Source: Nitrospirota bacterium
GTDB lineage: Bacteria > Nitrospirota > Thermodesulfovibrionia > UBA6902
NCBI GenBank assembly: GCA_016234115.1
Contig: JACRHD010000060.1
Location: 41,135-105,134 of the forward strand
DNA: 64,000 nt
Direction: 5' to 3'
In this document: in pieces, positions 20 through 62,995 of the stretch
Numbering within the stretch: position 1 is the first letter of the stretch
Layout: each line of letters starts with the position of its first letter
Notes under the pieces: model-generated
Seen by the model: only the letters and a program-made list of their open reading frames with translations
Databases searched by the model: none
Told to the model about the DNA's origin: nothing
Program-made: the position numbers and the translations under genes

Positions 20-463
20 ATGTCTATGTTCATAACACGTAAAACAGATTACGCCATACGATGTATTCTTTACCTTTCAAAGGACCTTGACCGCATTGCC
101 ACTGTTGAAGAGATATCGAAAGCAGTTCATGTCCCGAAGACGTTCATGGCAAAGATACTTCAGCAACTGATGAAGGCCGGGATCGCGGGCTCTGTCCGGG
201 GTATAAAGGGAGGGTTTCAGCTTGCAAGAAATCCGGAGGACATCAACCTCCTTGAGGTCATTGAAGCCATTCAGGGTCCTTCGGCAGCCAATATATGCGC
301 TCTCGACAAGAAGGCGTGCAGTCTCAGCGGGACATGCGCCGTCCACACGGTATGGGTCGAGCTGCGCGAAGAGGTCAACAGTCGCCTGAAAAGCTGGGAT
401 TTCGGGAAACTGACGGATAGAGAAAACAGATTGTCACATAGGGCAAAATGTGATAAAAGGTAA
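20..463 (+). CDS. Rrf2-family (IscR/NsrR-like) Fe-S transcriptional regulator
   Basis: The N-terminal winged HTH reads 'TDYAIRCILYL...ISKAVHVPKTFMAKILQQLMKAGI...GGFQLAR', typical of Rrf2 proteins. Three C-terminal Cys (CALDKKACSLSGTC) are spaced like IscR/NsrR cluster ligands. It lies immediately upstream of ccoN. Confidence 0.8.
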   Translation: MSMFITRKTDYAIRCILYLSKDLDRIATVEEISKAVHVPKTFMAKILQQLMKAGIAGSVRGIKGGFQLARNPEDINLLEVIEAIQGPSAANICALDKKACSLSGTCAVHTVWVELREEVNSRLKSWDFGKLTDRENRLSHRAKCDKR

Positions 464-502: not shown

Positions 503-1912
503 ATGAATGATTATCAATACGATAATCTGACGGTCAAAGGATTCATCACCTCCTCCATCTTCTGGGGTGTAGTAGGCATCCTCGCCGGAATCTGGATCTC
601 CATCCAGATGTGGAGTCCGTCATTGAATGTCCCCCCCTACTTCACATTCGGAAGATTGAGGGTGGTGCATACCAATATCCTGGCGTTCGGGCTCGTCCTG
701 GGATCTCTGATGGGAACATTCTACTACATCACAATGAGGCTGACCAGGAGACCTCTTCTCTTACCGAAGCTCGCAAGACTTACCTTGTATTTGTTCAACG
801 CCGCCATAGCGCTGGCCACGGTGACCCTGCTTCTTGGAATGACCCAGTCCCTTGAATACGCCGAGCTTGAATGGCCGCTCGACGTCGGGGTCGTTATTTT
901 ATGGGTGCTTTTTTCAGTCAATATTCTCGGCACTGTCATTAAAAGGAAAGAGGAACAGATGTACATCTCGCTCTGGTATATCATCGCCACGCTGATAACA
1001 ATTGCGGTGATCTACATTATCAATAACCTTTCCATCCCGGCGGGCCTCTTCAAGTCCTACCATCTTTTCGCTGGCGTCAACAGCGCCAACATCGAATGGT
1101 GGTACGGCCACAACGCGGTCGGGTCCGAACTCACAATGGCGGTCCTGGCAATATTCTATTACTTCCTGCCCAAATCCACGGGCATGCCGATATACAGCCA
1201 CAGGCTGTCGATAATCGCCTTCTGGTCGCTCGTATTCACATATCTCTGGACAGGCGCCCACCACCTTGTTTATACGCCTTTGCCGGACTGGATACAGACA
1301 CTCGGTATCGCCTTTACCGTGTTTCTCATTGCGCCGTCCTGGGGCTCGGTGGTAAACGGGTTCTATACCGTGGGCGCGGACTGGTCAAAGATGAGGACCC
1401 ATTATCTTACAAAATTCTTCATTCTCGGCATCACGTTCTACGGACTCCAGACCGTCCAGGGACCGACCCAGGGGCTCAGGGTGGTAAGCCAGTTGATCCA
1501 TTACACCGACTGGGTGCCCGGGCATGTGCATATGGGCACTATGGGATGGGACGCGCTGGTAATCGTCGCGGCCATTTACTATATCATCCCGCAGATATAT
1601 AAGACGGAGATATACAGCATAAAGATCGCAAATACCCATTTCTACCTCGTTTTGATCGGGCAACTGATCTTCTCGGTAACAATGTGGTTCACCGGGATCC
1701 AGCAAGGGGCCATGTGGAAGGCTTTAAACCCGGACGGAACGCTTAAGTACACGTTCATGGAGACCCTCGTGAAGAATTATCCCTTCTGGAAGATGAGGAC
1801 CCTTGGCGGAATTATATTCACTGTCGGGATGCTCTTTTTTATCTATAACATATACATGACGATCCGCAGGGGCAAGGAGCTGATTGCGTCAGGGGCGCAG
1901 GAGGTGGCATGA
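503..1912 (+). CDS. ccoN: cbb3-type cytochrome c oxidase subunit I (CcoN)
   Basis: 469-aa polytopic haem-copper oxidase with the conserved His ligands. It is followed by a CcoO-signature gene and a ccoGHIS-like set. An RBS (aggagg) precedes the ATG. Confidence 0.85.
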   Translation: MNDYQYDNLTVKGFITSSIFWGVVGILAGIWISIQMWSPSLNVPPYFTFGRLRVVHTNILAFGLVLGSLMGTFYYITMRLTRRPLLLPKLARLTLYLFNAAIALATVTLLLGMTQSLEYAELEWPLDVGVVILWVLFSVNILGTVIKRKEEQMYISLWYIIATLITIAVIYIINNLSIPAGLFKSYHLFAGVNSANIEWWYGHNAVGSELTMAVLAIFYYFLPKSTGMPIYSHRLSIIAFWSLVFTYLWTGAHHLVYTPLPDWIQTLGIAFTVFLIAPSWGSVVNGFYTVGADWSKMRTHYLTKFFILGITFYGLQTVQGPTQGLRVVSQLIHYTDWVPGHVHMGTMGWDALVIVAAIYYIIPQIYKTEIYSIKIANTHFYLVLIGQLIFSVTMWFTGIQQGAMWKALNPDGTLKYTFMETLVKNYPFWKMRTLGGIIFTVGMLFFIYNIYMTIRRGKELIASGAQEVA

Positions 1913-3835: not shown

Positions 3836-4456
3836 ATGTCAGACACATGCAGTTGTTTAGGATGCAATGTAGGCGAAACAGTACCGGACTTCAGGCTTGA
3901 GACTTACGAGCCGGCCAAGGGCGACTTCGGAGAGATCAGCCTTGAGACACTGAGGAATAATGGGAAGTGGACGATACTGTTTTTCTACCCTGCGGATTTC
4001 ACATTTGTCTGAGCTACCGAATTTGCTGCTCTGGCAGAGCAGTACGACAAGTTCAAAATGATGGACGCGGAGATCATTACAGTCAGCTCGGACACAAAGT
4101 TCGTGCACCTCGCGTGGCAGAGGGATGAAATGGAGCTGAAGGGGGTAAAATTCCCGATGGGCTCGGACACCACCGGCAAACTTGCGAGGATGTTCGGCGT
4201 TTATGATGAGAATACCGGCCTTTCATTAAGAGGCACCTTCATCATAAGTCCGGAAGGAAAGCTCATGAACTCGGAAGTCAATTTCTATAACCTCGGCAGG
4301 AACATTGACGAGCTGCTGAGAAAATTCAGGGCCAACCGCCATCTTGCGGAATACACTGCGGAGGCATGCCCTGCCCAATGGAGAAGCAACGGCGACCTGA
4401 CCCTGAAGCCTTCCGCCAAAATGGTCGGAAAGGTGCATGAAGCAATGGGGAAGTGA
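3836..4456 (+). CDS. selenocysteine-containing 2-Cys peroxiredoxin (in-frame UGA at 4010..4012 replaces the peroxidatic Cys)
   Basis: The ATG at 3836 (RBS aaggagg) opens a frame that reads ...FYPADFTFV-[TGA]-ATEFAA... and continues into ORF 4058..4456 in the same frame. The canonical peroxiredoxin motif is FTFVCPTE, so the TGA sits exactly at the peroxidatic-Cys position. The rest aligns to the AhpC/Prx fold ('VSSDTKFVHLAW', 'RGTFIISPEGKL...GRNIDELLR'). Confidence 0.75.
4026..4042 (+). promoter_or_regulatory. putative bacterial SECIS hairpin 13 nt downstream of the UGA
   Basis: ctgctct-ggc-agagcag forms a 7-bp stem with a small loop. It starts 13 nt 3' of the in-frame TGA, which is the spacing expected for a bacterial SECIS. 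Confidence 0.5.
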
Positions 4457-4520
4457 CAAGTGACGAGTAACAGGTGACAGGTGCCTTTTTACATGTTACT
4501 TGTCACTTGTTACTTGTTAC
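4453..4520. repeat. heptad-built inverted-repeat hairpin (GTGACAA GTGACGA GTAACAG GTGACAG / loop / GTTACTT GTCACTT GTTACTT)
   Basis: Four tandem GTRACRR heptads, a 14-nt spacer, then inverted copies. The first heptad contains the prx stop codon. Confidence 0.7.
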
Positions 4521-4534
4521 TATTTGGAGGATTC

Positions 4535-4633: not shown

Positions 4634-4798
4634 ATGACGTCTCAGCAGACAGCATATTTCGTCTTCGGACTCACGCTCGTTGTCATATTCACGGTAATAA
4701 TCATCTTTTACTCTTCAAAAAAGAGACACAAAGAGGTGGAGGGGCCGAAGTATAAAATGCTCGAGGATGAAGACAGAGAAGTGACGAGTGACAAGTAA
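4634..4798 (+). CDS. CcoS-like small membrane protein (divergent paralog)
   Basis: 54 aa with one TM and the tail 'EGPKYKMLEDEDRE'. The bona fide CcoS at 10202 ends 'AEKPKYRMLDDEDRQ'. The 3' end and stop of this gene lie inside a heptad repeat. Confidence 0.45.
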   Translation: MTSQQTAYFVFGLTLVVIFTVIIIFYSSKKRHKEVEGPKYKMLEDEDREVTSDK

Positions 4799-4866
4799 CA
4801 AGTGATCGGCAATTTACAAAAATCCCTCTAACTCGTTACCCGTTACTTGTTACCCGTTACTTGTTA
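4781..4866. repeat. heptad-built inverted-repeat element
   Basis: gtgacgagtgacaagtaacaagtga ... ctcgttacccgttacttgttacccgttacttgttac, running up to the ccoG start. Confidence 0.7.
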
Positions 4867-4869
4867 CTA

Positions 4870-6069: not shown

Positions 6070-6079
6070 GAAAACTAAA

Positions 6080-6137
6080 GTAACGGGTAACAAGTAACGA
6101 GTGACGAATAATTATTTAGTCACCCGTCACTTGTCAC
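6080..6137. repeat. heptad-built inverted-repeat element
   Basis: gtaacgggtaacaagtaacgagtgacga / ataattatttag / tcacccgtcacttgtcac. Confidence 0.7.
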
Positions 6138-6635: not shown

Positions 6636-6716
6636 CAGACAGAAAAAGGGGCAAGGGTTAAGAAAGAACCGGTCCGGGTTTTTACCCTTGACCCCTGACC
6701 CTTGACCCTCAATACT

Positions 6717-7382
6717 ATGGAACTAAGTTACACCCTCGCATTTACAACAGGCTTTCTCGGAGGCTTCGGACATTGCATAGGTATGTGCGGACCTATTATT
6801 ACAGCATATACTTTTCACAGCACTCCTGCCGGATTTTATCCGTCACCTGTCAGGAACGTTCTTCCCCACCTCTTCTACAACACAGGGCGCATTACTACGT
6901 ACATGTTCGCGGGCGCGGTAATGGGATTGACAGGTTCATTTGTGAACACGGCAGGCCGCTTAACTGGGTTTCAAAATTCAGTAGCGCTTATTGCCGGGCT
7001 CCTGATGTTAATAATGGGTATACGAATTTCAGGCATTACAGGCGGAATAACATGGCTCGAAAAACGTAACGGCCTCATTATCCGGGCAGGGAAAGGTCTG
7101 GCAGGCGGCGAAACCTTATGGATGTATTATCCCCTCGGGGCGTTATTCGGCTTTCTGCCGTGCGGCCTTTCCTATTCAGCGTTCCTGGCCGCAGCGGGAA
7201 GCGGCAGCATGCTGTCCGGCATGCTTACAACGTTCTTCTTCGGGCTCGGCACACTTCCCGCGTTACTGTTGTTCGGGCTTGCCGCCGGGTATCTGAGTAA
7301 TAAATTAAAAGGGCTGCTGTACAGATTGTCAGGAGTGATCGTCATTTTGACGGGGGGGTATTTTATTGTCAGAGCATTATAA
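6717..7382 (+). CDS. DsbD_2/UreH-like polytopic membrane protein with an HCxxMCGP motif (probable metal or thiol handling)
   Basis: Has 'GGFGHCIGMCGPII' and about six TM helices. It is located inside the ccoGHIS maturation cluster. Confidence 0.5.
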   Translation: MELSYTLAFTTGFLGGFGHCIGMCGPIITAYTFHSTPAGFYPSPVRNVLPHLFYNTGRITTYMFAGAVMGLTGSFVNTAGRLTGFQNSVALIAGLLMLIMGIRISGITGGITWLEKRNGLIIRAGKGLAGGETLWMYYPLGALFGFLPCGLSYSAFLAAAGSGSMLSGMLTTFFFGLGTLPALLLFGLAAGYLSNKLKGLLYRLSGVIVILTGGYFIVRAL

Positions 7383-7385
7383 TTC

Positions 7386-7645
7386 AAAAAAATCCCCCTT
7401 AATCCCCCTTTTTCAAAGGGGGACTTTTAGAATTCCCCTCTTTGGAAAAGACCAACAGTAGGTGCCTTAAGCAGGGGTCAGGGGGAGATTTTGTCAAAAC
7501 AAAGGTGAGTACAATGTATCCATTCAGTTATAGGGTGTATCTTTGTGCCGGAAAGAAACCCACCCCCCTCCCAGGAGGGGACCTTGTCTTTAGTCCCCTC
7601 TTGAGAGGGGTGCAGGGGTGTGTTATAACTTGTAACTGAATGGAT
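7386..7645. repeat. composite intergenic repeat (element B 7386-7425, element A 7434-7492, IR-flanked element C 7519-7645)
   Basis: B = aaaaatcccccttaatcccccttttcaaagggggactttt. A = cccctctttggaaaagaccaacagtaggtgccttaagcaggggtcaggggagatttt. C is flanked by gtatccattcagttat / aactgaatggatac and contains the palindromes cccctcttgagagggg and cccctcccaggagggg. Copies occur at 16686, 53571, 58581 and 62967. Confidence 0.75.
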
Positions 7646-7655
7646 ACAAATTCTT

Positions 7656-10097
7656 ATGCAAACATGTGACCACTGCTTACTTCAATTCCCGGACAGAGAA
7701 GCAGTCTACGGGGAAATCAAAGGCCGGAGACAGGTCTTCTGCTGTCACGGATGTATGGGTATTTTCAGTCTGATTAATGATGAGGGACTCGAAGAGTTTT
7801 ATGAGAAACGAGACTCATGGCTGCCCGGCCCCGCTTCCGACAAGCCGTGGAACGCAGCGGCCTTTACGGAACACGTGCGACAGGCCGGGAATGAACTCGA
7901 AACCGAAGTGGTCCTCGACGGCATAAGATGCGCCTCCTGCGTCTGGCTGAATGAGAAGGTCCTGGACAGGACAAAGGGAGTGACATTCGTCAGCGTCAAT
8001 TATGCCACTCATCGGGCAAGGATACGCTGGAGACCTGAAGACACCGGCCTTGATACAATCCTCAGAAGGATTGCGTCAATCGGATATACGCCTAAACCTC
8101 CTGTTGCAGCGGCATATGAAGAAGACTTGAAGGCCGGTCAGAAAGACCTTCTGATACGCCTTGGGACAGCCTCATTTTTTTCAATGCAGCTTATGCTGTA
8201 TTCCACTGCCCTTTACGCGGGATATTTCCAGGGGATTGATGAACGCACAAAAGACATTTTCCATCTCATCTCGCTGATGCTTACAACCCCCGTGCTTTTT
8301 TATTCCGGCTTTCCTTTCATAAATGGAGCGGCAAGGGGATTGCGAAACCGGGTATTCAATATGGACCTGCTTATTGTTACAGGGGCGGGCTCCGCATACC
8401 TGTACAGCATGTTCCAGATGTTTTCAGGCGGGAAGGTATATTTCGACACTGCCGCCATGATAATAACCCTCATCCTTTTAGGCAGATATATAGAGGCCGG
8501 GGCAAAGAGTAAGGCTTCACAAACAATAATCAGGCTCCTGTCTTTAAGTCCGAAGGAAGCGAAGAAAATAAAGGGGCAAGGGGCAAGGAGCAAGGGTCAA
8601 GGGTGGGGAGACACAGATTTCGAAACAGTCCTGATATCTTCTATAAAGCCGGGCGAATTGATTCAGGTGGCCCCGGGCGAGAAGATACCGCTTGACGGCA
8701 TTATGGTATCAGGATCATCAGAGGTCGATGAATCCATGCTTACAGGTGAATCAAGGCCTGTATCGAAGACAGAGGGCGCTGAGGTTTTCTGTGGTACGCA
8801 AAACTTATACGGTAACATCATTTTCGAAGTCAACAGGACCTCCGCGGACACTGTTCTTTCACAGATCATAAAGGTCGTCGGAGATGCGCAGGCGCGGCGC
8901 GCTCCGTTTCAAATGTTTGCGGACAGGGTTGTCGGCTTCTTTGTGCCGTCTGTCCTTCTTCTGAGTATCATGACATTTGCGTACCGCTTTTTAAACGGCA
9001 GCCCGGCCACCGAGGCACTGATGATTTCCATCTCCGTCCTCGTGATAGCCTGCCCGTGCGCCTTAGGTCTTGCAACGCCCCTTGCCGTACTCGCGGGCAC
9101 AACACGCGCCGCGTCAAAAGGCATATTGATCAAAGGCGGTGACGTAATAGAAATAGCAAAGAATATAGACCTTGCAGTCCTGGACAAGACAGGCACCATA
9201 ACAGAAGGCCGCCCCCTCCCCGGCCCGTTCATGACCAGAGGTCTTTCAGAAACAGAAGCCCTCAGCATCGCAGCGTCGCTTGAACGCCATTCCGAGCATT
9301 CGATAGGAAAGGCGATAGCCGGCGCGGCAAAGGGCCTTGAATTGCATGAAGTAACAGGCTTTACTGCGCATCCCGGCAAAGGAGTAAAGGGAGAGGTAAA
9401 CGGGAAGATAGCCCTCATTGGCAACAGGAGCTTCCTGGAATCTGAGGGAATCGATCTCAACCCGGACCATAGTATTCTCTCTGAATCCGTATCCCTCGAA
9501 TCAGCCGGAGCTACTGTTGTTTATTTATCTTATGACGGAGAATTCGCCGGGATATTTTCGGTGTCGGACGCCGTGCGGAAAGAAGCTGCGGAAGCAGTCC
9601 GGCTATTGCAACAGGAAGGTCTTGATGTGGAGATGATAACAGGAGATAATGGTATAACAGCATCGGCGGCGGCAAAGGATGCCTGGATAAATGAAGTAAA
9701 GGCCCGGATGTCTCCTGTTGAAAAGGCCGGTGAGATCAAAAGGATGCAGGATGTAGGAAGGCATGTGATGATGGTAGGTGACGGAATCAACGACGCTCCT
9801 GCGCTGGTGCAGGCCGACATAGGTATCGCGATGGGCAAGGGCACAGACATTGCCCTTGAAAGCTCCGACATGGTGCTGATGAGAGACGACCTCCGTCTTC
9901 TTCCCGAAGCCCTAAGCATTGCGAAAAAGACCTTCTCCGTGATCAGGCAGAATATCTTCTGGGCCTTCTTCTATAACGTGCTCGCGATTCCTCTTGCGAT
10001 AACAGGCGTCCTTCACCCTATTGCCGCAGCCGGCGCCATGGCGTTCAGCTCGTTGAGCGTGGTGGGGAATTCGTTGAGATTGTTGAGGATAAAATAA
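7656..10097 (+). CDS. ccoI: copper-translocating P1B-type ATPase CcoI/FixI
   Basis: Has the N-terminal CDHC...CCHGC motifs and an HMA-like 'GIRCASCV' motif. It also has the CPC motif (IACPCALGLATP), DKTGT, and the GDGINDAP hinge. 813 aa. Confidence 0.85.
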   Translation: MQTCDHCLLQFPDREAVYGEIKGRRQVFCCHGCMGIFSLINDEGLEEFYEKRDSWLPGPASDKPWNAAAFTEHVRQAGNELETEVVLDGIRCASCVWLNEKVLDRTKGVTFVSVNYATHRARIRWRPEDTGLDTILRRIASIGYTPKPPVAAAYEEDLKAGQKDLLIRLGTASFFSMQLMLYSTALYAGYFQGIDERTKDIFHLISLMLTTPVLFYSGFPFINGAARGLRNRVFNMDLLIVTGAGSAYLYSMFQMFSGGKVYFDTAAMIITLILLGRYIEAGAKSKASQTIIRLLSLSPKEAKKIKGQGARSKGQGWGDTDFETVLISSIKPGELIQVAPGEKIPLDGIMVSGSSEVDESMLTGESRPVSKTEGAEVFCGTQNLYGNIIFEVNRTSADTVLSQIIKVVGDAQARRAPFQMFADRVVGFFVPSVLLLSIMTFAYRFLNGSPATEALMISISVLVIACPCALGLATPLAVLAGTTRAASKGILIKGGDVIEIAKNIDLAVLDKTGTITEGRPLPGPFMTRGLSETEALSIAASLERHSEHSIGKAIAGAAKGLELHEVTGFTAHPGKGVKGEVNGKIALIGNRSFLESEGIDLNPDHSILSESVSLESAGATVVYLSYDGEFAGIFSVSDAVRKEAAEAVRLLQQEGLDVEMITGDNGITASAAAKDAWINEVKARMSPVEKAGEIKRMQDVGRHVMMVGDGINDAPALVQADIGIAMGKGTDIALESSDMVLMRDDLRLLPEALSIAKKTFSVIRQNIFWAFFYNVLAIPLAITGVLHPIAAAGAMAFSSLSVVGNSLRLLRIK

Positions 10098-10126
10098 TTA
10101 ACCACAGAGGACACAGAGAACAAAAG

Positions 10127-10191
10127 TGACAAGTGACGAGTAACAGGAGCTCAAAGAGCCCACCAGTCACTCGTTACTTGTCACTTGTTAC
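10127..10191. repeat. heptad-built inverted-repeat hairpin
   Basis: gtgacaagtgacgagtaacag / loop / gtcactcgttacttgtcacttgttac. Confidence 0.7.
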
Positions 10192-10201
10192 TTTTTATAT
10201 T

Positions 10202-10348
10202 ATGTGGAGCATACTTCTTTTAATATTTCTCACATTGTGCGCGGGGCTTGCCGCATGGCTGTTTTTCCTGTGGGCGGTCAAGAGCGGCCAGTATGATGAT
10301 GCGGAGAAGCCGAAGTATCGGATGCTTGATGATGAGGACAGACAGTGA
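10202..10348 (+). CDS. ccoS: cbb3 oxidase maturation protein CcoS/FixS
   Basis: 'MWSILLLIFLTLCAGLAAWLFFLWAVKSGQYDDAEKPKYRMLDDEDRQ' matches the CcoS consensus W..AVKSGQ(F/Y)DD.E.P. Its stop TGA is the first heptad of another half-repeat (10345-10373). Confidence 0.7.
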   Translation: MWSILLLIFLTLCAGLAAWLFFLWAVKSGQYDDAEKPKYRMLDDEDRQ

Positions 10349-10404
10349 CAAGTGACGAGTAACATGTAACAAGTTTTGCGCTTGACAACCGGAGTCCTTC
10401 GGTG

Positions 10405-10743
10405 TTAGATACCGATTATTTCATTCAACCCCTCAACTGCCAGTGCCAACTCTTCTGGAGATACCCTTCCAAGCTTCTTTCCAATTCTCTCAACAGAAAG
10501 AGTTCTAATCTGACTGATCTTAACCCAAGACCGTTTGGGTAAATATTCAAATTTTAATTCTAACGTCAAAGGAAAACCCGCATGTTGTGGCTGACTGGTA
10601 AGAGCCATAGCGATTACTGTTCCTGAACGCTCATTAAAGATATCATGACTCAAGATTAAGACAGGTCTCATGCCTGCTTGCTCATGACCACGCGTTGGAT
10701 TTAAATCAGCCCATCGAATCTCTCCCCTTAATATTTTGGCCAT
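10405..10743 (-). CDS. type II toxin, PemK/MazF-family endoribonuclease
   Basis: 'RGEIRWADLNPTRGHEQAGMRPVLILSHDIFNERSGTVIAMALTS' matches the MazF/PemK fold. It overlaps the upstream RHH gene by 16 nt. Confidence 0.8.
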   Translation of the reverse strand: MAKILRGEIRWADLNPTRGHEQAGMRPVLILSHDIFNERSGTVIAMALTSQPQHAGFPLTLELKFEYLPKRSWVKISQIRTLSVERIGKKLGRVSPEELALAVEGLNEIIGI

Positions 10744-10970
10744 TCACTTAAATCCTCGCATAATCCTTCCTCAGCCATCGCCCTCTCAAATGTTGGATCC
10801 AATTTGGCACATTCCTTTGCTAAACGATTGCGCTCCAATCTCTCTATTTTTTCATCAACCGCTTCCTGAATTGCCTGACTACGATTTGAAAAGATTTGTT
10901 CATGAACAAGATGGTCCAGGCGTTTGATAGAATCTTGTTCCAAAGTTATAGCAATTTTTGCTTTACTCAT
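10728..10970 (-). CDS. ribbon-helix-helix antitoxin (CopG/MazE-like)
   Basis: 'MSKAKIAITLEQDSIKRLDHLV...SNRSQAIQEAV' reads as an RHH motif. RBS gggaggtg. Confidence 0.7.
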   Translation of the reverse strand: MSKAKIAITLEQDSIKRLDHLVHEQIFSNRSQAIQEAVDEKIERLERNRLAKECAKLDPTFERAMAEEGLCEDLSEWPKY

Positions 10971-11492
10971 ATATTCACCTCCCGGTATTACCATATATCA
11001 TACCGAATACCGGAAATACGTTCAAGCTGCTATCATTCCACCCGTAACGGTCTTGCCATCGTGTCCCCCACCTTCAAACGATAAATTAAATTAAACAACA
11101 GTGCCGTTTCGAGTCAATGCATTTCGCTTTTAAAATATTTTTTCAAGGGCTGACCCCTTGCCGTTCTGATTTCAAGCCCCGACCCATTTGCTGCTCTTTA
11201 AAAGAGCAAAATGAAAGACTTGACCCTCATCCTTGACTCACTGTGGCACTCGTTCAACTCCATCACAAATGACAACTGTTTGTTTTTTAGAGACTTGAAA
11301 AACTGATATTCGCAATTCATCATATTACGCAGATAATACGCCCTTCGTAATATCCGGGCTCAATTACATTATGGTGGGACAAGATGCATAGGGACGCTTT
11401 ACCGTGTCATGAATTTCCGCTTGCCCACGCCTTGTTGATGAAAAGTATATTCCATCCTGGCTTCATGGTCAAGCAAATTCTTGGCAGCGGCC

Positions 11493-16318: not shown

Positions 16319-16603
16319 TCAATATCCGTATCTTATATCAAAACTCTTGTACTCCCCGGTAGGTCCCTGCCATTCCTCCTCGACCTTTAATACCCTTGCG
16401 CCGACGGGACCCCTCTGGCACCATTGAACAGCCTGCATGACTTTTTCCACAGGCCCTTCAAACACCGCTTCAACATTACCGTCATGCAGGTTCCTGACCC
16501 ATCCCGTCAGCCCGAGTCTGAAGGCAGTGTCCCGTGTGCTTGCACGGAAGAAGACCCCCTGGACATATCCTTTAATGATCAGATGTACCCGGCCGTTTTC
16601 CAT
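16319..16603 (-). CDS. acyP: acylphosphatase
   Basis: 'IKGYVQGVFFRASTRDTAFRLGLTGWVRNLHDGNVEAVFEG' is the acylphosphatase signature. Confidence 0.85.
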   Translation of the reverse strand: MENGRVHLIIKGYVQGVFFRASTRDTAFRLGLTGWVRNLHDGNVEAVFEGPVEKVMQAVQWCQRGPVGARVLKVEEEWQGPTGEYKSFDIRYGY

Positions 16604-16685
16604 ATGTTAATAGGTCCTTCACAGGGCCAACGCCTCGCCCTGCCGACTGGGTCTGCGACAAAAAAGTTGGGGCTCTCAACTAATT

Positions 16686-16840
16686 CCCCTCTTTGGAAAA
16701 GACCAACAGTAGGTGCCTTAAGCAGGGGTCAGGGGAGATTTGTTGAAAACGATTATTCCGAAAAATCCCCCTTCATCCCCCTTTGCCAAAGGGGGAATAT
16801 GGCTTTACCAATAAATTTGTCGCACACCCCTGCCAACTCC
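16686..16840. repeat. composite intergenic repeat (element A 16686-16742, element B 16761-16798, truncated C-like segment about 16821-16840)
   Basis: Near-identical to the 7434-7492 and 7386-7425 copies. Confidence 0.75.
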
Positions 16841-16951
16841 TTCACTAACGCTTTATTAGATTATAAGTTATAATATTCATCTCAAATGCCACTTGCAAGC
16901 TTTTTTTTGTACTGGTAGAATTCTCTGTAGACTTAACAGCGGAGGTGTGTT

Positions 16952-30276: not shown

Positions 30277-31626
30277 CTAATCCATTCCTATCTGACCGGA
30301 CAGGGATGATCCCAACGGCACCATAGAAGACTTTATGCCGACTTTTCTGCAGGCCCGGGCCGCTGTCCTGATCGCATTATTACAGCTCCTTTCATCAGGA
30401 TAAATATGGCTCATGTTGACGACATACATATTCTTGACCGGGGTCTCACAATTCGGCACTATGCCGGAATAATTGAGTCCGCATATTGTTGCGGCCGTTT
30501 TCGCGCGAAAGACATAAGTATTTTTTATCCATGACTCATTGAACCGCGGGTTGATCCTGTTTAACGGCGCGATCATCCGATGCAGAATTTCACTGTTTGT
30601 CGCCGAGGCAATATCGGCATCACCGGCAAAGTATCTCGAAAGGTACAAAATATGACTGCCGTTATACTTGTCCGGGGATATAAAATTGGTATGCTCAATA
30701 ATTCCGCCGAAAGGGAACCCGGGGTCGGCAATGTTGAGCCAGTATATATGGCTGAGAGGTCGGTCCATCTCCAGGATGGTGCAAACTGCGCTGCTGTATC
30801 TGATTCGGGACAGTTCATCCGCATATTCAGATGCGGTCTCCCTTAATAATGGAGTTAGATGCGTCGCGGCTATCGTCGCAAGGAAAAGCCCGCCGGTATA
30901 CGGGCCTCTTGTTGTTTCCACCGCGCACAGCGTATTGGCCTTTATCACCAATTTTGTCAGCCGCGCGTTCAATATGATCTTTACCCCCAGGTTTGTCAAA
31001 CTTCTTTCGAGGGTGTCCGTCAATATCTGCAGACTTCCTTCAATATACCCGAGCTGCTCTCCTGTTCCCTTGCGGGAATTCATTCTCTGCTTAAGGCGTC
31101 CTACCATCCAGGCAGCAGGCACTTTGTCCGCATGGGAGCCGAACTTTATTTCAAGCAGCGGCCTCCATATCGAATCAGTAACATTCCTTCCGGTATATCT
31201 GTAAAACCATTCCAGGGCTGAAACGCCTTCCCATTTTCTCCAGTCCGTCAGCTTACCGAGATAAATACTGGTAAGAAGGAACCGTATTTTGTCCGCTGCG
31301 CCCAGAGGAGTGAACCCGAGGAGGTCTTTCAGTCCGTTGAAATCGTAGATTTTATTATTTCGGAATATGCCTACCGTTGTTTTTTTGAAATCAATCCTGT
31401 CACTTAAGTTCAATTCCCTTAATAACCACAACAGTTCCGCGTCATTGGTAAAACAGTGATGGTAGTAATGCTCCAACAGGCTGCCGCCGATCTGAAAAGT
31501 ACTCATTAAACCGCCTAACTGCGGGCCGCCTTCCAGCAAGGTCACTTCCCATCCGTCTTTGGCCGCAAGATAAGCAGAGGAAAGCCCTGTTATTCCTCCT
31601 CCGATAATGGTTATTTTCTTCCGCAT
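30277..31626 (-). CDS. FAD-dependent oxidoreductase (amine oxidase / phytoene desaturase superfamily)
   Basis: 'KKITIIGGGITGLSSAYLAAKDGWEVTLLE' is a Rossmann FAD-binding N-terminus. 449 aa. Confidence 0.7.
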   Translation of the reverse strand: MRKKITIIGGGITGLSSAYLAAKDGWEVTLLEGGPQLGGLMSTFQIGGSLLEHYYHHCFTNDAELLWLLRELNLSDRIDFKKTTVGIFRNNKIYDFNGLKDLLGFTPLGAADKIRFLLTSIYLGKLTDWRKWEGVSALEWFYRYTGRNVTDSIWRPLLEIKFGSHADKVPAAWMVGRLKQRMNSRKGTGEQLGYIEGSLQILTDTLERSLTNLGVKIILNARLTKLVIKANTLCAVETTRGPYTGGLFLATIAATHLTPLLRETASEYADELSRIRYSSAVCTILEMDRPLSHIYWLNIADPGFPFGGIIEHTNFISPDKYNGSHILYLSRYFAGDADIASATNSEILHRMIAPLNRINPRFNESWIKNTYVFRAKTAATICGLNYSGIVPNCETPVKNMYVVNMSHIYPDERSCNNAIRTAARACRKVGIKSSMVPLGSSLSGQIGMD

Positions 31627-53249: not shown

Positions 53250-53570
53250 ACCCTACCCTCCCGCAGTTCGCGCGGGCCCATTTGTTTCGGATTTGCTCCG
53301 GGACGAGACGGACCCATGGACCAGCGGCATTCTCTGTCGACTTTATGGACAGGATCAATATTGTTCATCACCGGGCAATCCCCTGTTTTTCTCACGGCCG
53401 ACGATCGGTTCCTTTGAAGGACTCATAGACAATATTACGTAATGTTTTATTATATCCTTTAATTCGCCGGTATATAAAGCCGGGGACGTTTTTCCATCCG
53501 GCATTTATTCAAAGCAGGAACCTATGACCCCCTTATTAATACAAACGCAAAATGTATAGTTACATTTTAA

Positions 53571-53668
53571 AAAATCTCCCATGACCCCTGCTTAAGGCGC
53601 CTACTGTCGGTCTTTTCCAAAGAGGGGATTAGTCTCCCCCTTTGAAAAAGGGATGAAGGGGGATTTTA
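53571..53668. repeat. composite intergenic repeat, reverse orientation (element A 53571-53632, element B 53633-53668)
   Basis: Reverse complements match the 7434-7492 and 16761-16798 copies. Confidence 0.75.
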
Positions 53669-53677
53669 TAACTTTAC

Positions 53678-55204
53678 TTATTGCGTTTGTATTAGTATTT
53701 CATAAATACCGAATGTCCTCTCCAGCGCATAGTTAGTCGAAATGTAATTATCAAGCAAATCTATTTTCGTGTCGATGCTGCTGAGATTAGGCTCATGCCG
53801 CAAGCGGGCGGCCAGAACAACAAGCCGGGGGGGACTTGCTTCAAATTCCCTGATCACTTCCTCCTGTACCTCTGCTGAAGTATGGACCCCCGGATTAAGC
53901 ACATGGTATCTTGAAGCGCAGTTCCTCTGCGCAAGAAAGTAAATTATTACGTCGTTGAAAACAAACTGATCGTGATTTGTCACTCCGACATATATTTTGT
54001 CGTCTTTTACGGTGTTGCTCTTTATGTATAATACGGCATCCCTGAGGTCCGAATCTATTACTGAATATCTCGCCCTCTCAATGTCGGGATTGACGGCCTC
54101 CACAACGTAACCGTTCGTGCGAGACAGGAGCATCATGATGACACTGACCGGTTTGGACAAGGTAATGCCGAAGACAACGACAAACAGCATATAGACCAAT
54201 CTGTTATAACCCGCGCTCAGCGACAGTCCTCTCGTCAATATATGGAGTAAAAGCGGGGCCAGTAAAATGCCGCTCAGCGCAACCGGAAGCAGGTGTACGA
54301 CGTCCGACCTGGTCCTTGCCTGATTAAAACAGAATATGCCGATGAGGGAGATAATAAGCAACGAATATGCCGTTGCATCATCTCTTTTGCGTTTTATCAT
54401 GCCGACAGACATAACAGCGCCCGTCACAAGGACTGACGGAAATATAAAGAAAGGAAGGTTCCACCTTGAAAAAGAAGGATAAGGAAGCGCCTGTTTCTCA
54501 AGAAAAGCTAACGGGATAAGGACCAGATCGTTAAACAATTCCCCTGCAGCAGAGTTCATGACAAAATAGACCAGCACAGGCAGCCCTGTCATGAGTCCGC
54601 CTGATATGAATGTGATCGGCGCAGCCCATGAACGTCTCTCAATTATGCTTCTGATTATCAGTACAATAGAAATCGCGATAGAAGCGTATCCTCCCAGATC
54701 ATGCCGAAACAGGACGGCGCAGGCGATAGAGACCGCGCTCAGGATTACATAGTAATTCTTTTGCTCCATCATATACCGCGTCAGCAAATAAACGCTTACA
54801 AATATAAACAGCATGGCGGGATACACCGGGTACGCGGGGAAACTGCTGTGCTGCAGCCAGACAAGCGACATAATCCAGCCTGGCAGCGCAATCTTCTCCG
54901 AAGCTATGAGGTTGATAATAAGAAAAATAGTCATCGAAAGGAGCGCCTTTATCACAAGGTCATATACTCTTTCAGTGAAGACCGATACCCCGAAGACTTT
55001 AAAGAGAGCGGCCAGGGCATAAAGCTGTCCCACCGGGTATTCCGAGGAAAAATCCTTATGCGGGACCTGTCCCTCCAATATCCTCTCCGCCCCGACCAGT
55101 ATTACCGCTTCATCATATGGGGCCAGGGGCAAATTGATTACGGGGAGATAATAAATGATGGCAATAACAAACAGAATTGCCGGGAACAGATATTTTTTGC
55201 GCAT
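53678..55204 (-). CDS. GT-C fold membrane glycosyltransferase (ArnT-like)
   Basis: Polytopic, about 510 aa, with an N-terminal 'LAPYDEAV' loop region typical of ArnT/PMT. The start could be at 55249 in the longer ORF. Confidence 0.5.
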   Translation of the reverse strand: MRKKYLFPAILFVIAIIYYLPVINLPLAPYDEAVILVGAERILEGQVPHKDFSSEYPVGQLYALAALFKVFGVSVFTERVYDLVIKALLSMTIFLIINLIASEKIALPGWIMSLVWLQHSSFPAYPVYPAMLFIFVSVYLLTRYMMEQKNYYVILSAVSIACAVLFRHDLGGYASIAISIVLIIRSIIERRSWAAPITFISGGLMTGLPVLVYFVMNSAAGELFNDLVLIPLAFLEKQALPYPSFSRWNLPFFIFPSVLVTGAVMSVGMIKRKRDDATAYSLLIISLIGIFCFNQARTRSDVVHLLPVALSGILLAPLLLHILTRGLSLSAGYNRLVYMLFVVVFGITLSKPVSVIMMLLSRTNGYVVEAVNPDIERARYSVIDSDLRDAVLYIKSNTVKDDKIYVGVTNHDQFVFNDVIIYFLAQRNCASRYHVLNPGVHTSAEVQEEVIREFEASPPRLVVLAARLRHEPNLSSIDTKIDLLDNYISTNYALERTFGIYEILIQTQ

Positions 55205-58580: not shown

Positions 58581-58725
58581 TTCCCTGTAACCCTCAGTTA
58601 CGAGTTATAACACACCCCTGCGCCCCTCTCAAGAGGGGAATAAAGACAAGTCCCCTCCTGGGAGGGGTAAGGGGTGGTTTTCTTTCCGGCACACATATCC
58701 ACCACGTAACTGAAGGGGTCACGTA
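58581..58725. repeat. IR-flanked element C, reverse orientation
   Basis: Reverse complement of 7546-7640, including cccctctcaagagggg and cccctcctgggagggg. Flanked by ccctcagttacg / cgtaactgaagggg. Confidence 0.75.
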
Positions 58726-62966: not shown

Positions 62967-62995
62967 CCCCCCTTTTTCAAAGGGGGAGACGGCAC
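62967..62995. repeat. element-B fragment (cccccctttttcaaagggggagacggcac)
   Basis: Shares the palindrome with the B copies at 7386, 16761 and 53633. Confidence 0.6.

Follow-up and report, generated by a model that had tools for sequence, protein, structure and literature searches.

What are the short palindromic repeats that recur between the genes of a Nitrospirota bacterium, and how did they get there? The question is raised by a 64,000-nt stretch of assembly GCA_016234115.1 (contig JACRHD010000060.1, positions 41,135-105,134), called the window here. A reading made from the letters alone (the sequence-only reading) had described three elements, A, B and C, at five intergenic sites and proposed a MITE (a miniature transposable element with inverted repeats) or, alternatively, a small RNA or terminator/antiterminator module. 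Our analysis indicates that the five sites probably represent one family of selfish, non-coding, non-autonomous, hairpin-based interspersed repeats, in which A is a hairpin unit with a nested 22-nt insert. They are best read as units similar to MITEs or to REPINs (hairpin-forming doublets of repetitive extragenic palindromic, REP, sequences), with a nested insert resembling the small dispersed repeats (SDRs) of Nostoc.

The sequences described earlier are present at all five sites, and the palindromes and the inverted repeat around C were found to be exact on re-examination. The 50-nt core of A occurs three times in the window with at most three mismatches (7435-7484 and 16686-16735 on the plus strand, 53578-53627 on the minus strand), while 100 shuffles gave an expectation of zero. 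According to the repeat finder, A1 and A2 are 100% identical over 54 nt and the minus-strand copy A3 is 92-94% identical to them; B1 and B2 share 87% and their identity to B3 is 76%; the two copies of C (7520-7639 and 58594-58717) share 80-83%. The previously given range of 85-95% is therefore too high for C and B3.

All three elements are built from one unit, so the distinction of A, B and C as separate elements was not borne out. This unit, U, is about 35-40 nt long and consists of a perfect 8-10 bp hairpin with a C-run in the 5' arm and a G-run in the 3' arm, followed by 3-4 nt, a second G-run duplicating the hairpin arm and a T tract. A hairpin combined with GGGG-N(2-5)-GGGG is found 14 times in the window versus 3.8 in shuffles, and 7 of the 14 are the units of A, B and C on either strand. 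Element B is an empty U on the opposite strand, its 5' C-run being a 10-nt tandem duplicate of the hairpin arm. Element C is an inverted pair of two empty U units bracketed by a 16-bp inverted repeat without a mismatch. In element A, a stretch of exactly 22 nt, CCAACAGTAGGTGCCTTAAGCA, breaks the 3' arm of U immediately 5' of its G-run: the hairpin reads TCCCCTCTTT-GGA-AAAGAGGGGA, and the insert sits between AAAGA and GGGG. The covariance model R1, made from A copies, matches the B copies on the opposite strand as forms without the 22 nt, and it matches positions 9268-9300 of the related locus L032 in the same way (loci outside the window are numbered with an L).

Since A, B and C are all based on U, they can be written as doublets, where rcU is U in reverse complement. 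The order is [rcU][U] in B+A (sites 1 and 3) and within C (sites 1 and 4), and the permuted [U][rcU] at site 2 and in L002, L003, L020 and L021. In the predicted folds B pairs with A into one long imperfect hairpin from which the 22 nt are bulged out. Inverted doublets of U were also found in L002, L003, L032 and the Acinetobacter locus L036. U stands alone at site 5 of the window; elsewhere there are doublets, and three differing longer inverted-repeat shells enclose doublets.

Copies of the insert were gathered by exact match to most of the 22-mer, and 33 distinct copies were compared. Excision of exactly 22 nt regains a perfect 7-12 bp hairpin in 27 of them, and the host hairpins have at least ten different sequences in Nitrospirota metagenome-assembled genomes (MAGs) and metagenomes. 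In copies with a G at the end of the left flank, the stem reaches 10-12 bp with the exact boundaries alone and 4 bp at most when they are shifted. The insert always lies directly 5' of a G-run, mostly GGGG and rarely AGGG, GGCC, GCGG or GGTT. Model-guided alignment of 31 copies leaves 95.6% of the cells in the interrupted host stems paired, against 42-60% with slid partners, and compensatory changes are seen in six of the nine host stem pairs. The insert itself is laid out as CCAACA-GTAG-(G)-mini-hairpin, with a mini-hairpin stem of 3-4 bp and GTAG 1 nt 5' of it; the first mini-hairpin pair changes from T-A to C-G in the variants of L019 and L006. Of 12 copies between co-directional genes, 11 have the insert on the sense strand, and in L008 the 22-mer is also located in loops, reversed relative to its neighbours. 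The 22-nt piece is a separate, secondary insertion at a defined target position, made without target duplication. A segment at 31075-31106 of the window's minus strand, TGGTAGGACGCCTTAAGCAGAG, located in a 449-aa open reading frame (ORF; 30277-31626), resembles the 22-mer, with GTAGG and GCCTTAAGCAG in common, probably by chance.

The strongest evidence for separate insertion of the 22-mer is the orthologous pair L024/L046. U with the 22-mer immediately follows the stop codon of a HlyD-family gene in L024, whereas L046 (96% protein identity to L024) has an empty U at the same place and the same downstream sequence; no U follows the HlyD gene in L047 (90%) and L048 (88% protein identity). The order of events was therefore no unit, then unit, then unit with insert. 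A hairpin which is empty in L005 is filled in L029 and L008, and positions 9270-9305 of L032 correspond to element A of the window without the 22 nt (ATTCCCCTCTTTGAAAAAGA^GGGGTTAGGGAGATTTT, with the insertion point at ^). All five contigs of one population (L037-L041) have the 22-mer, and no strain-level polymorphism for it was seen among them. About 200 nt from their filled unit, a 20-nt hairpin-forming segment, TTCACAAACCAGTTGTGTAT (alignment A5, columns 41-60), is present in four of these contigs and missing from L039, the remainder being identical. Relatives of L022 (88% and 80% protein identity) were considered as clean empty sites and rejected: the element is absent there but synteny is broken.

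Whole units and their shells also came by insertion, as they are missing from the orthologous spacers of relatives. L032 has a U+insert...rcU doublet between two genes, and the orthologous spacer of L033 is without it. Between DsbD_2 and FixI there is an overlap of 14 nt in L032 and L033, a spacer of 26 nt in L034 and one of 273 nt in the window, where the site-1 repeats occupy 241 of the 273 nt. With 7386-7492 and 7515-7648 removed, the window spacer is colinear with that of L034, so that the ancestral spacer is regained. Site 1 therefore represents two independent insertions inside an operon rather than a module boundary.

The first of these insertions is the B+A doublet, [rcU][U+insert], at 7386-7492 of the plus strand, a single insertion into the DsbD_2-FixI spacer with the outer arms AAAATCCCCC and GGGGGAGATTTT. 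It includes B1, an empty minus-strand U (TCCCCCTTTGAAAAAGGGGGA TTAA GGGGGATTTTTTT; 7386-7428, hairpin at 7403-7423, R1 match without the 22 nt at 7396-7428 of the minus strand), and A1, a U with insert on the plus strand (TCCCCTCTTT GGA AAAGA^GGGG TCA GGGGGAGATTTT; 7434-7492). Excision of its insert copy (7452-7473, plus strand) gives back the 9-bp perfect hairpin CCCCTCTTTGGAAAAGAGGGG. For terminal repeats the doublet has only its units' outer arms, 10-12 nt long. Next comes a non-repeat remnant of the ancestral spacer, GTCAAAACAAAGGTGAGTACAA (7493-7514, plus strand), which aligns to the L034 spacer after repeat removal. The second insertion is C, a 134-nt plus-strand module (7515-7648) absent from relatives and bounded by the perfect 16-bp terminal repeat TGTATCCATTCAGTTA (7515-7530 and 7633-7648); in its interior doublet of empty units, hairpin 1 spans 7565-7580 and hairpin 2 spans 7595-7610, with a second G-run at 7615-7618. 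Folded as DNA, the module has a z-score of -6.6. An independent short-read assembly, the Logan contig L001 (SRR12113407), stops within C, 37 nt upstream of the ATPase start codon, which fits an assembly-breaking repeat.

Site 2 is a 181-nt MITE-like shell (16649-16829, plus strand) with terminal repeats of 14-17 bp, GGGTCTGCGACAAA and TTTGTCGCACACCC. Its interior has the order U...rcU, with A2 at 16685-16742, the second insert copy at 16703-16724 (plus strand) and the minus-strand unit B2 at 16762-16799 (hairpin 16776-16796). The shell is flanked by a 9-bp direct repeat matching at 8 of 9 positions, a candidate target-site duplication (CTGCCGACT at 16640-16648, CTGCCAACT at 16830-16838). What had been taken for a C fragment here is the right arm of this different terminal inverted repeat (TTTGTCGCACACCC, 16816-16829), which has only CACACCCCTGC in common with C. 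The same terminal repeat occurs in the metagenome loci L011, L013, L023 and L031, whose interiors use another host hairpin. A 149-aa ORF (16424-16873, plus strand) crosses the whole site-2 repeat; this ORF is spurious with near certainty and is likely to cause mis-annotation.

The site-3 shell (53534-53697, minus strand) is bounded by a 29-nt inverted repeat of 86% identity (53534-53562 and 53669-53697, core TAATACAAACGCAA), which also flanks the copy in L009. It encloses an [rcU][U+insert] doublet on the minus strand, consisting of B3 (53630-53667) and A3 (53565-53628), with the third insert copy, CCGACAGTAGGCGCCTTAAGCA, carrying two substitutions (53589-53610, minus strand). Site 4 is C', the reversed second copy of C (58589-58718, minus strand), with the inverted repeat AACCCTCAGTTACG/CGTAACTGAAGGGG and two empty units with double G-runs (58615-58626, minus strand; 58664-58674, plus strand). 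Site 5 (62968-62986) is a lone hairpin, CCCCCTTTTTCAAAGGGGG, identical to that of B1 and without the second run.

All five sites are intergenic, and the neighbouring genes are ordinary and mutually unrelated: they code for DsbD_2 and the FixI ATPase, acylphosphatase and a flavo-diiron-like protein, polysaccharide deacetylase, glycosyltransferases and NDP-hexose dehydratase. Every copy had been placed in a promoter-proximal intergenic region at a boundary between functional modules. The intergenic location stands but the rest does not hold for every copy, as site 1 lies inside the cbb3-oxidase maturation operon, with DsbD_2 on one side and FixI on the other, and sites 3 and 5 are flanked by co-directional genes; neighbours are divergent only at sites 2 and 4.

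Copies also exist in other genomes. In a genome scan, A+B turned up in near-identical form in two further species-level MAGs, one assigned to Thermodesulfovibrionia and one to Nitrospirae, and a metagenome scan with the 22-mer returned 27 contigs, in which it is always intergenic and the same 22 nt sit in differing hairpins. The 22-mer was not found in viral contigs, and the plasmid collection gave a match to the B-type unit only, in Acinetobacter and Allocoleopsis. A Blastocatellia match (L004) was discarded as a chance match within a coding-like region.

The 22-mer is not the only piece nested in such hairpins. A further family of mini-inserts, represented by the perfect palindrome CCTGCCTACCGGACAGGCAGG of 21 nt, occurs in hairpins of L029 (about 506-526, minus strand), L014 (about 103-123, minus strand), L022 (1880-1900, plus strand) and L023, and the empty counterpart of such a site is seen in L005 (ACCACCCCGGC^CTTTGGCC). 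In a B-type unit of L032 (9200-9240), the two C-runs are separated by a hairpin of 38 nt, TGCTTCCCGTTGCGATGCTAAGCAGCAACGGGAGCCCA, in place of the 4-nt linker. Nesting is thus general in this lineage. Outside Nitrospirota, an Allocoleopsis PCC 7113 plasmid (L035, 301-395) combines B with another hairpin in which a different insert of 21 nt, CCGGAGCTTTAGTGAGGAGCT, takes the same position, which hints at a link to cyanobacterial repeats. On an Acinetobacter plasmid (L036, 240-340), an empty U...rcU pair immediately follows a stop codon.

Tandem heptamer arrays of the AAGTGAC and GTTACTT types are located at 4451-4521, 4779-4868, 6079-6111, 10124-10193 and 10344-10374, in spacers of the cbb3-oxidase cluster, where their inverted pairs could form long hairpins. 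They are reminiscent of the short tandem heptamers known from heterocystous cyanobacteria. Similar heptamers border the A copies of L020 and L024; in L047 and L048 they follow the HlyD gene. Where the DsbD_2 gene starts there is another array, ACCCTTG (6684-6709), with 85% complementarity to AAGGGGC repeats (8571-8604) that lie 1.9 kb away within the reading frame of the ATPase; a 7-nt period is unusual in a coding region. Just past FixS, a PemK-family toxin gene and a small upstream partner ORF (10405-10994, minus strand) have heptamer hairpins on their flanks. CAGCTG is absent from the window against about 12 expected, and so are all CTAG-containing hexamer palindromes, suggesting restriction avoidance. 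CTTAAG, considered as a methylation- or restriction-linked palindrome like HIP1 (highly iterated palindrome 1), occurs 12 times against 9.3 expected, which is not unusual.

Several other explanations of the repeats have to be weighed. That they are local duplications or degenerate gene fragments confined to the window is already refuted by the elements in other species and in the 27 metagenome contigs, always intergenic, and by their precise insertion boundaries; the weak resemblance inside the ORF at 31075-31106 is what speaks for this explanation, and its chances are negligible. Structured RNAs are another alternative. The units could act as small RNAs, as 3' stem-loops that stabilise mRNA or as terminator/antiterminator modules, the 22 nt serving as a functional loop and two G-runs competing for one C-run. 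The stems do covary, and the 273-nt site-1 spacer folds with a z-score of -5.9. Besides the sense-strand preference, units often begin 0-25 nt past a stop codon (L024, L046, L012, L026, site 1 of the window and Acinetobacter L036), and their A-tract and T-tract flanks are like those of bidirectional terminators. However, with its insert the A unit is no more stable in its fold than shuffled sequence (z of +0.17, compared with -2.7 when emptied), so the insert damages the structure of the unit and removes its fold advantage. The sole Rfam match in the window at the gathering threshold is a tRNA, and at E-values up to 10 region 7300-7700 gives only chance-level matches far below the cut-offs; twister, pistol and hammerhead ribozymes are therefore not supported. 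A search of 7200-7800 for intrinsic terminators (GC-rich stem, T-run within 0-2 nt) found only hairpin 1 of C (7565-7580), and weakly; A and B fail this simple rule because the T tract sits behind the second G-run and not after the stem. Copies are also found in the divergent promoter regions of sites 2 and 4, have no common neighbour gene and are missing from orthologous sites, and the L008 22-mer lies in loops and in reversed orientation. We thus see little chance that RNA function is the primary nature of the repeats, as the sequence-only reading had alternatively proposed. Other regulatory candidates were dropped: a sigma-54 promoter on the reverse strand of the 22-mer (GGCAC-N-TTGG) has unfit spacing and an unfit -12 element by inspection, and no consensus match was found for an IHF or a CsrA site, the GGA loop varying between host hairpins.

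Two further explanations take the repeats as mobile DNA of a known kind. The shells may be classical MITEs derived from DDE-transposase insertion sequences, with the hairpins as cargo and the 22-mer as a variable MITE interior. Like MITEs, they are 100-190 nt long, non-coding and very stable in predicted fold, and have filled and empty orthologous sites as well as terminal inverted repeats: perfect at C, shared with other loci at sites 2 and 3. The direct repeat of site 2 recalls the 9-bp flanking direct repeat of Chunjie in Geobacter, a bacterial MITE like Nezha of Anabaena/Nostoc and Correia of Neisseria (PMC3184786). These features, with copies in other genomes, agree with the MITE reading put forward earlier; that reading had missed the nested insert, and duplications around C, the site-3 shell and L023 and a parent insertion sequence or transposase were all looked for in vain. 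Moreover, the B+A of site 1, the A of L024 and the doublets of L002, L003 and L032 have no long terminal repeats, the same interior is found within three unrelated terminal repeats, suggesting that units inserted into, or were captured by, other palindromes, and the same 22-mer at the same spot of at least ten unrelated hairpins is left unexplained. On balance, a purely classical MITE seems unlikely to us. True REPs or REPINs, arranged as bacterial interspersed mosaic elements (BIMEs) and moved by a REP-associated tyrosine transposase (RAYT) of the Y1 HUH type, are an improbable alternative. Here the units would be REPs, the doublets REPINs and the 22-mer, GTAG plus hairpin, a minimal REP. The resemblance includes extragenic GC-rich palindromes, single or as inverted doublets in both orders, with long hairpins, mosaics with other short motifs and possible targets of further insertion; the 22-mer has its GTAG 1 nt 5' of the small hairpin, the first pair of which covaries, and the lack of target duplication together with the strand bias is what single-strand HUH enzymes would give. 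By the rule given in PMC6006769, however, a REP has GT[AG]G 0-2 nt 5' of the hairpin, and 7-20 nt are paired in its basal stem. With 9-12 bp, the U hairpins have AATT, TAAT or CTAA at the foot and no GT[AG]G, and the stem of the 22-mer is only 3-4 bp, so the formal REP rule does not describe either of them. No RAYT-like (TnpA_REP, Y1) gene was found among 1,124 ORFs of the window and about 270 kb of related loci, although the query, an approximate E. coli YafM sequence, makes this a weak test.

Returning to a family of selfish hairpin units with a nested insert, we suppose that both layers, shells and 22-mer, would be mobilised in trans by enzymes encoded elsewhere. The shells may move in a MITE or REPIN manner, whereas the 22-mer would integrate into hairpin-forming DNA, probably in single-stranded form, without target duplication and beside GG (on the opposite strand, 3' of CC), as is reported for the 21-27 nt SDRs of Nostoc. 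With low confidence, we speculate that an HUH/Y1-type enzyme carries out this single-strand integration next to CC/GG in extruded hairpins, because the insert has a GTAG-hairpin signature, no terminal repeats, no duplication and a strand bias; the mini-hairpin, much shorter than those of canonical REPs, speaks against this route, and so does the failure to find such a gene among the ORFs searched. The insertion sequences IS200/IS605, which use the Y1 enzyme TnpA, and their miniature derivatives offer a similar picture: the 22-mer, too, lacks terminal inverted repeats and target duplication, lies beside a short fixed sequence (CC/CCCC on the bottom strand) and combines small hairpins with strand bias. 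It differs in having one weak hairpin instead of two subterminal ones and no identifiable pairing between guide and target tetranucleotides, and no TnpA was found among the ORFs searched, by the same weak test. It is possible, though we hold it only tentatively, that the 22-mer and its sisters such as CCTGCCTACCGGACAGGCAGG are currently or recently active minimal mobile DNA, inserted strand-specifically and without duplication beside the G-run of extruded hairpins by a host- or element-encoded single-strand enzyme. Present in transcripts, the units would form stable stem-loops, and so any influence on mRNA stability, termination or translational coupling would probably be a side effect rather than what the repeats exist for. 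Such RNA-level by-products, including stem-loops, partial termination and lost translational coupling at site 1, are plausible.

A number of observations weigh against this interpretation as a whole. A target-site duplication is seen at site 2 only, with none at C, site 3 or L009 and a match of at most 5 of 9 at L023. No insertion sequence with the same ends (GGTGTGCGACAAATTT, TGTATCCATTCAGTTA) was found in about 325 kb of the window and related loci, and phmmer searches of the 1,124 ORFs at E-values up to 10 gave no RAYT match with the approximate query. A long element with the split halves of the 22-mer as its ends was likewise sought in the 325 kb, and none was found. The window has only five sites in its 64 kb, the nearest relatives of the organism show only about 70% protein identity, and no recent movement is seen in this genome itself (the closest homologues of its FixI-type ATPase beyond its own record are about 70% identical). 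The invariance of the 22-mer is partly a matter of ascertainment, because loci were retrieved by exact match. Gene conversion between similar hairpins could be another route by which the insert spreads without transposition, and the sense-strand bias and T tracts would also fit selection for an RNA-level role.

How pieces of DNA of about 20 nt multiply and insert precisely has been an open question since the 2008 report of the Nostoc SDRs. The same behaviour is now seen in an unrelated phylum, with a simple target (the G-run of a hairpin arm) and clean pairs of filled and empty sites, and the GTAG-plus-hairpin signature points towards HUH/Y1 enzymes as testable candidates. If the insert is indeed active minimal mobile DNA, it would belong to a widespread class, found in Nitrospirota and possibly in cyanobacterial and Acinetobacter plasmids with the same hairpin scaffold, and the orthologous filled and empty sites would make its mechanism experimentally tractable. 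The repeats also break short-read assemblies, create spurious ORFs (16424-16873) and can part translationally coupled genes (site 1), and therefore matter for the annotation of Nitrospirota MAGs and for operon prediction.

The closest comparison is with the SDRs of Nostoc punctiforme and its relatives, which Elhai and colleagues reportedly described in 2008 as repeats of 21-27 nt, nested in palindromic targets and accompanied by heptamer arrays. We know of no enzyme assigned to them, and to our knowledge very small mobile repeats have so far been described only in Nostoc-type cyanobacteria (Nostocaceae). A literature search by sequence strings and by topic returned no description of the Nitrospirota elements. 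The inserts found here are of similar size (22 and 21 nt) and occur as near-identical dispersed copies, this identity being partly due to ascertainment. They too are nested within other repeats, exist in filled and empty versions and share their host genome with tandem heptamer arrays. Both kinds of repeat take a precise spot in a palindromic target: ours lies 5' of the G-run of a hairpin arm, while SDR5 inserts between nucleotides 3 and 4 of HIP1; among HIP1-rich cyanobacteria, SDR-like repeats were reported as not found outside Nostocaceae (PMC5861425, PMC4390886). The differences are the phylum and the target, a C-run/G-run hairpin instead of HIP1, and the likeness to SDR4, SDR5 and SDR6 is one of described properties. 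Overall, the repeats fall outside the formal REP definition, agree with MITEs only in part and behave like Nostoc SDRs; what is new is a hairpin repeat with a nested 22-nt insert, at filled and empty orthologous sites, in Nitrospirota.

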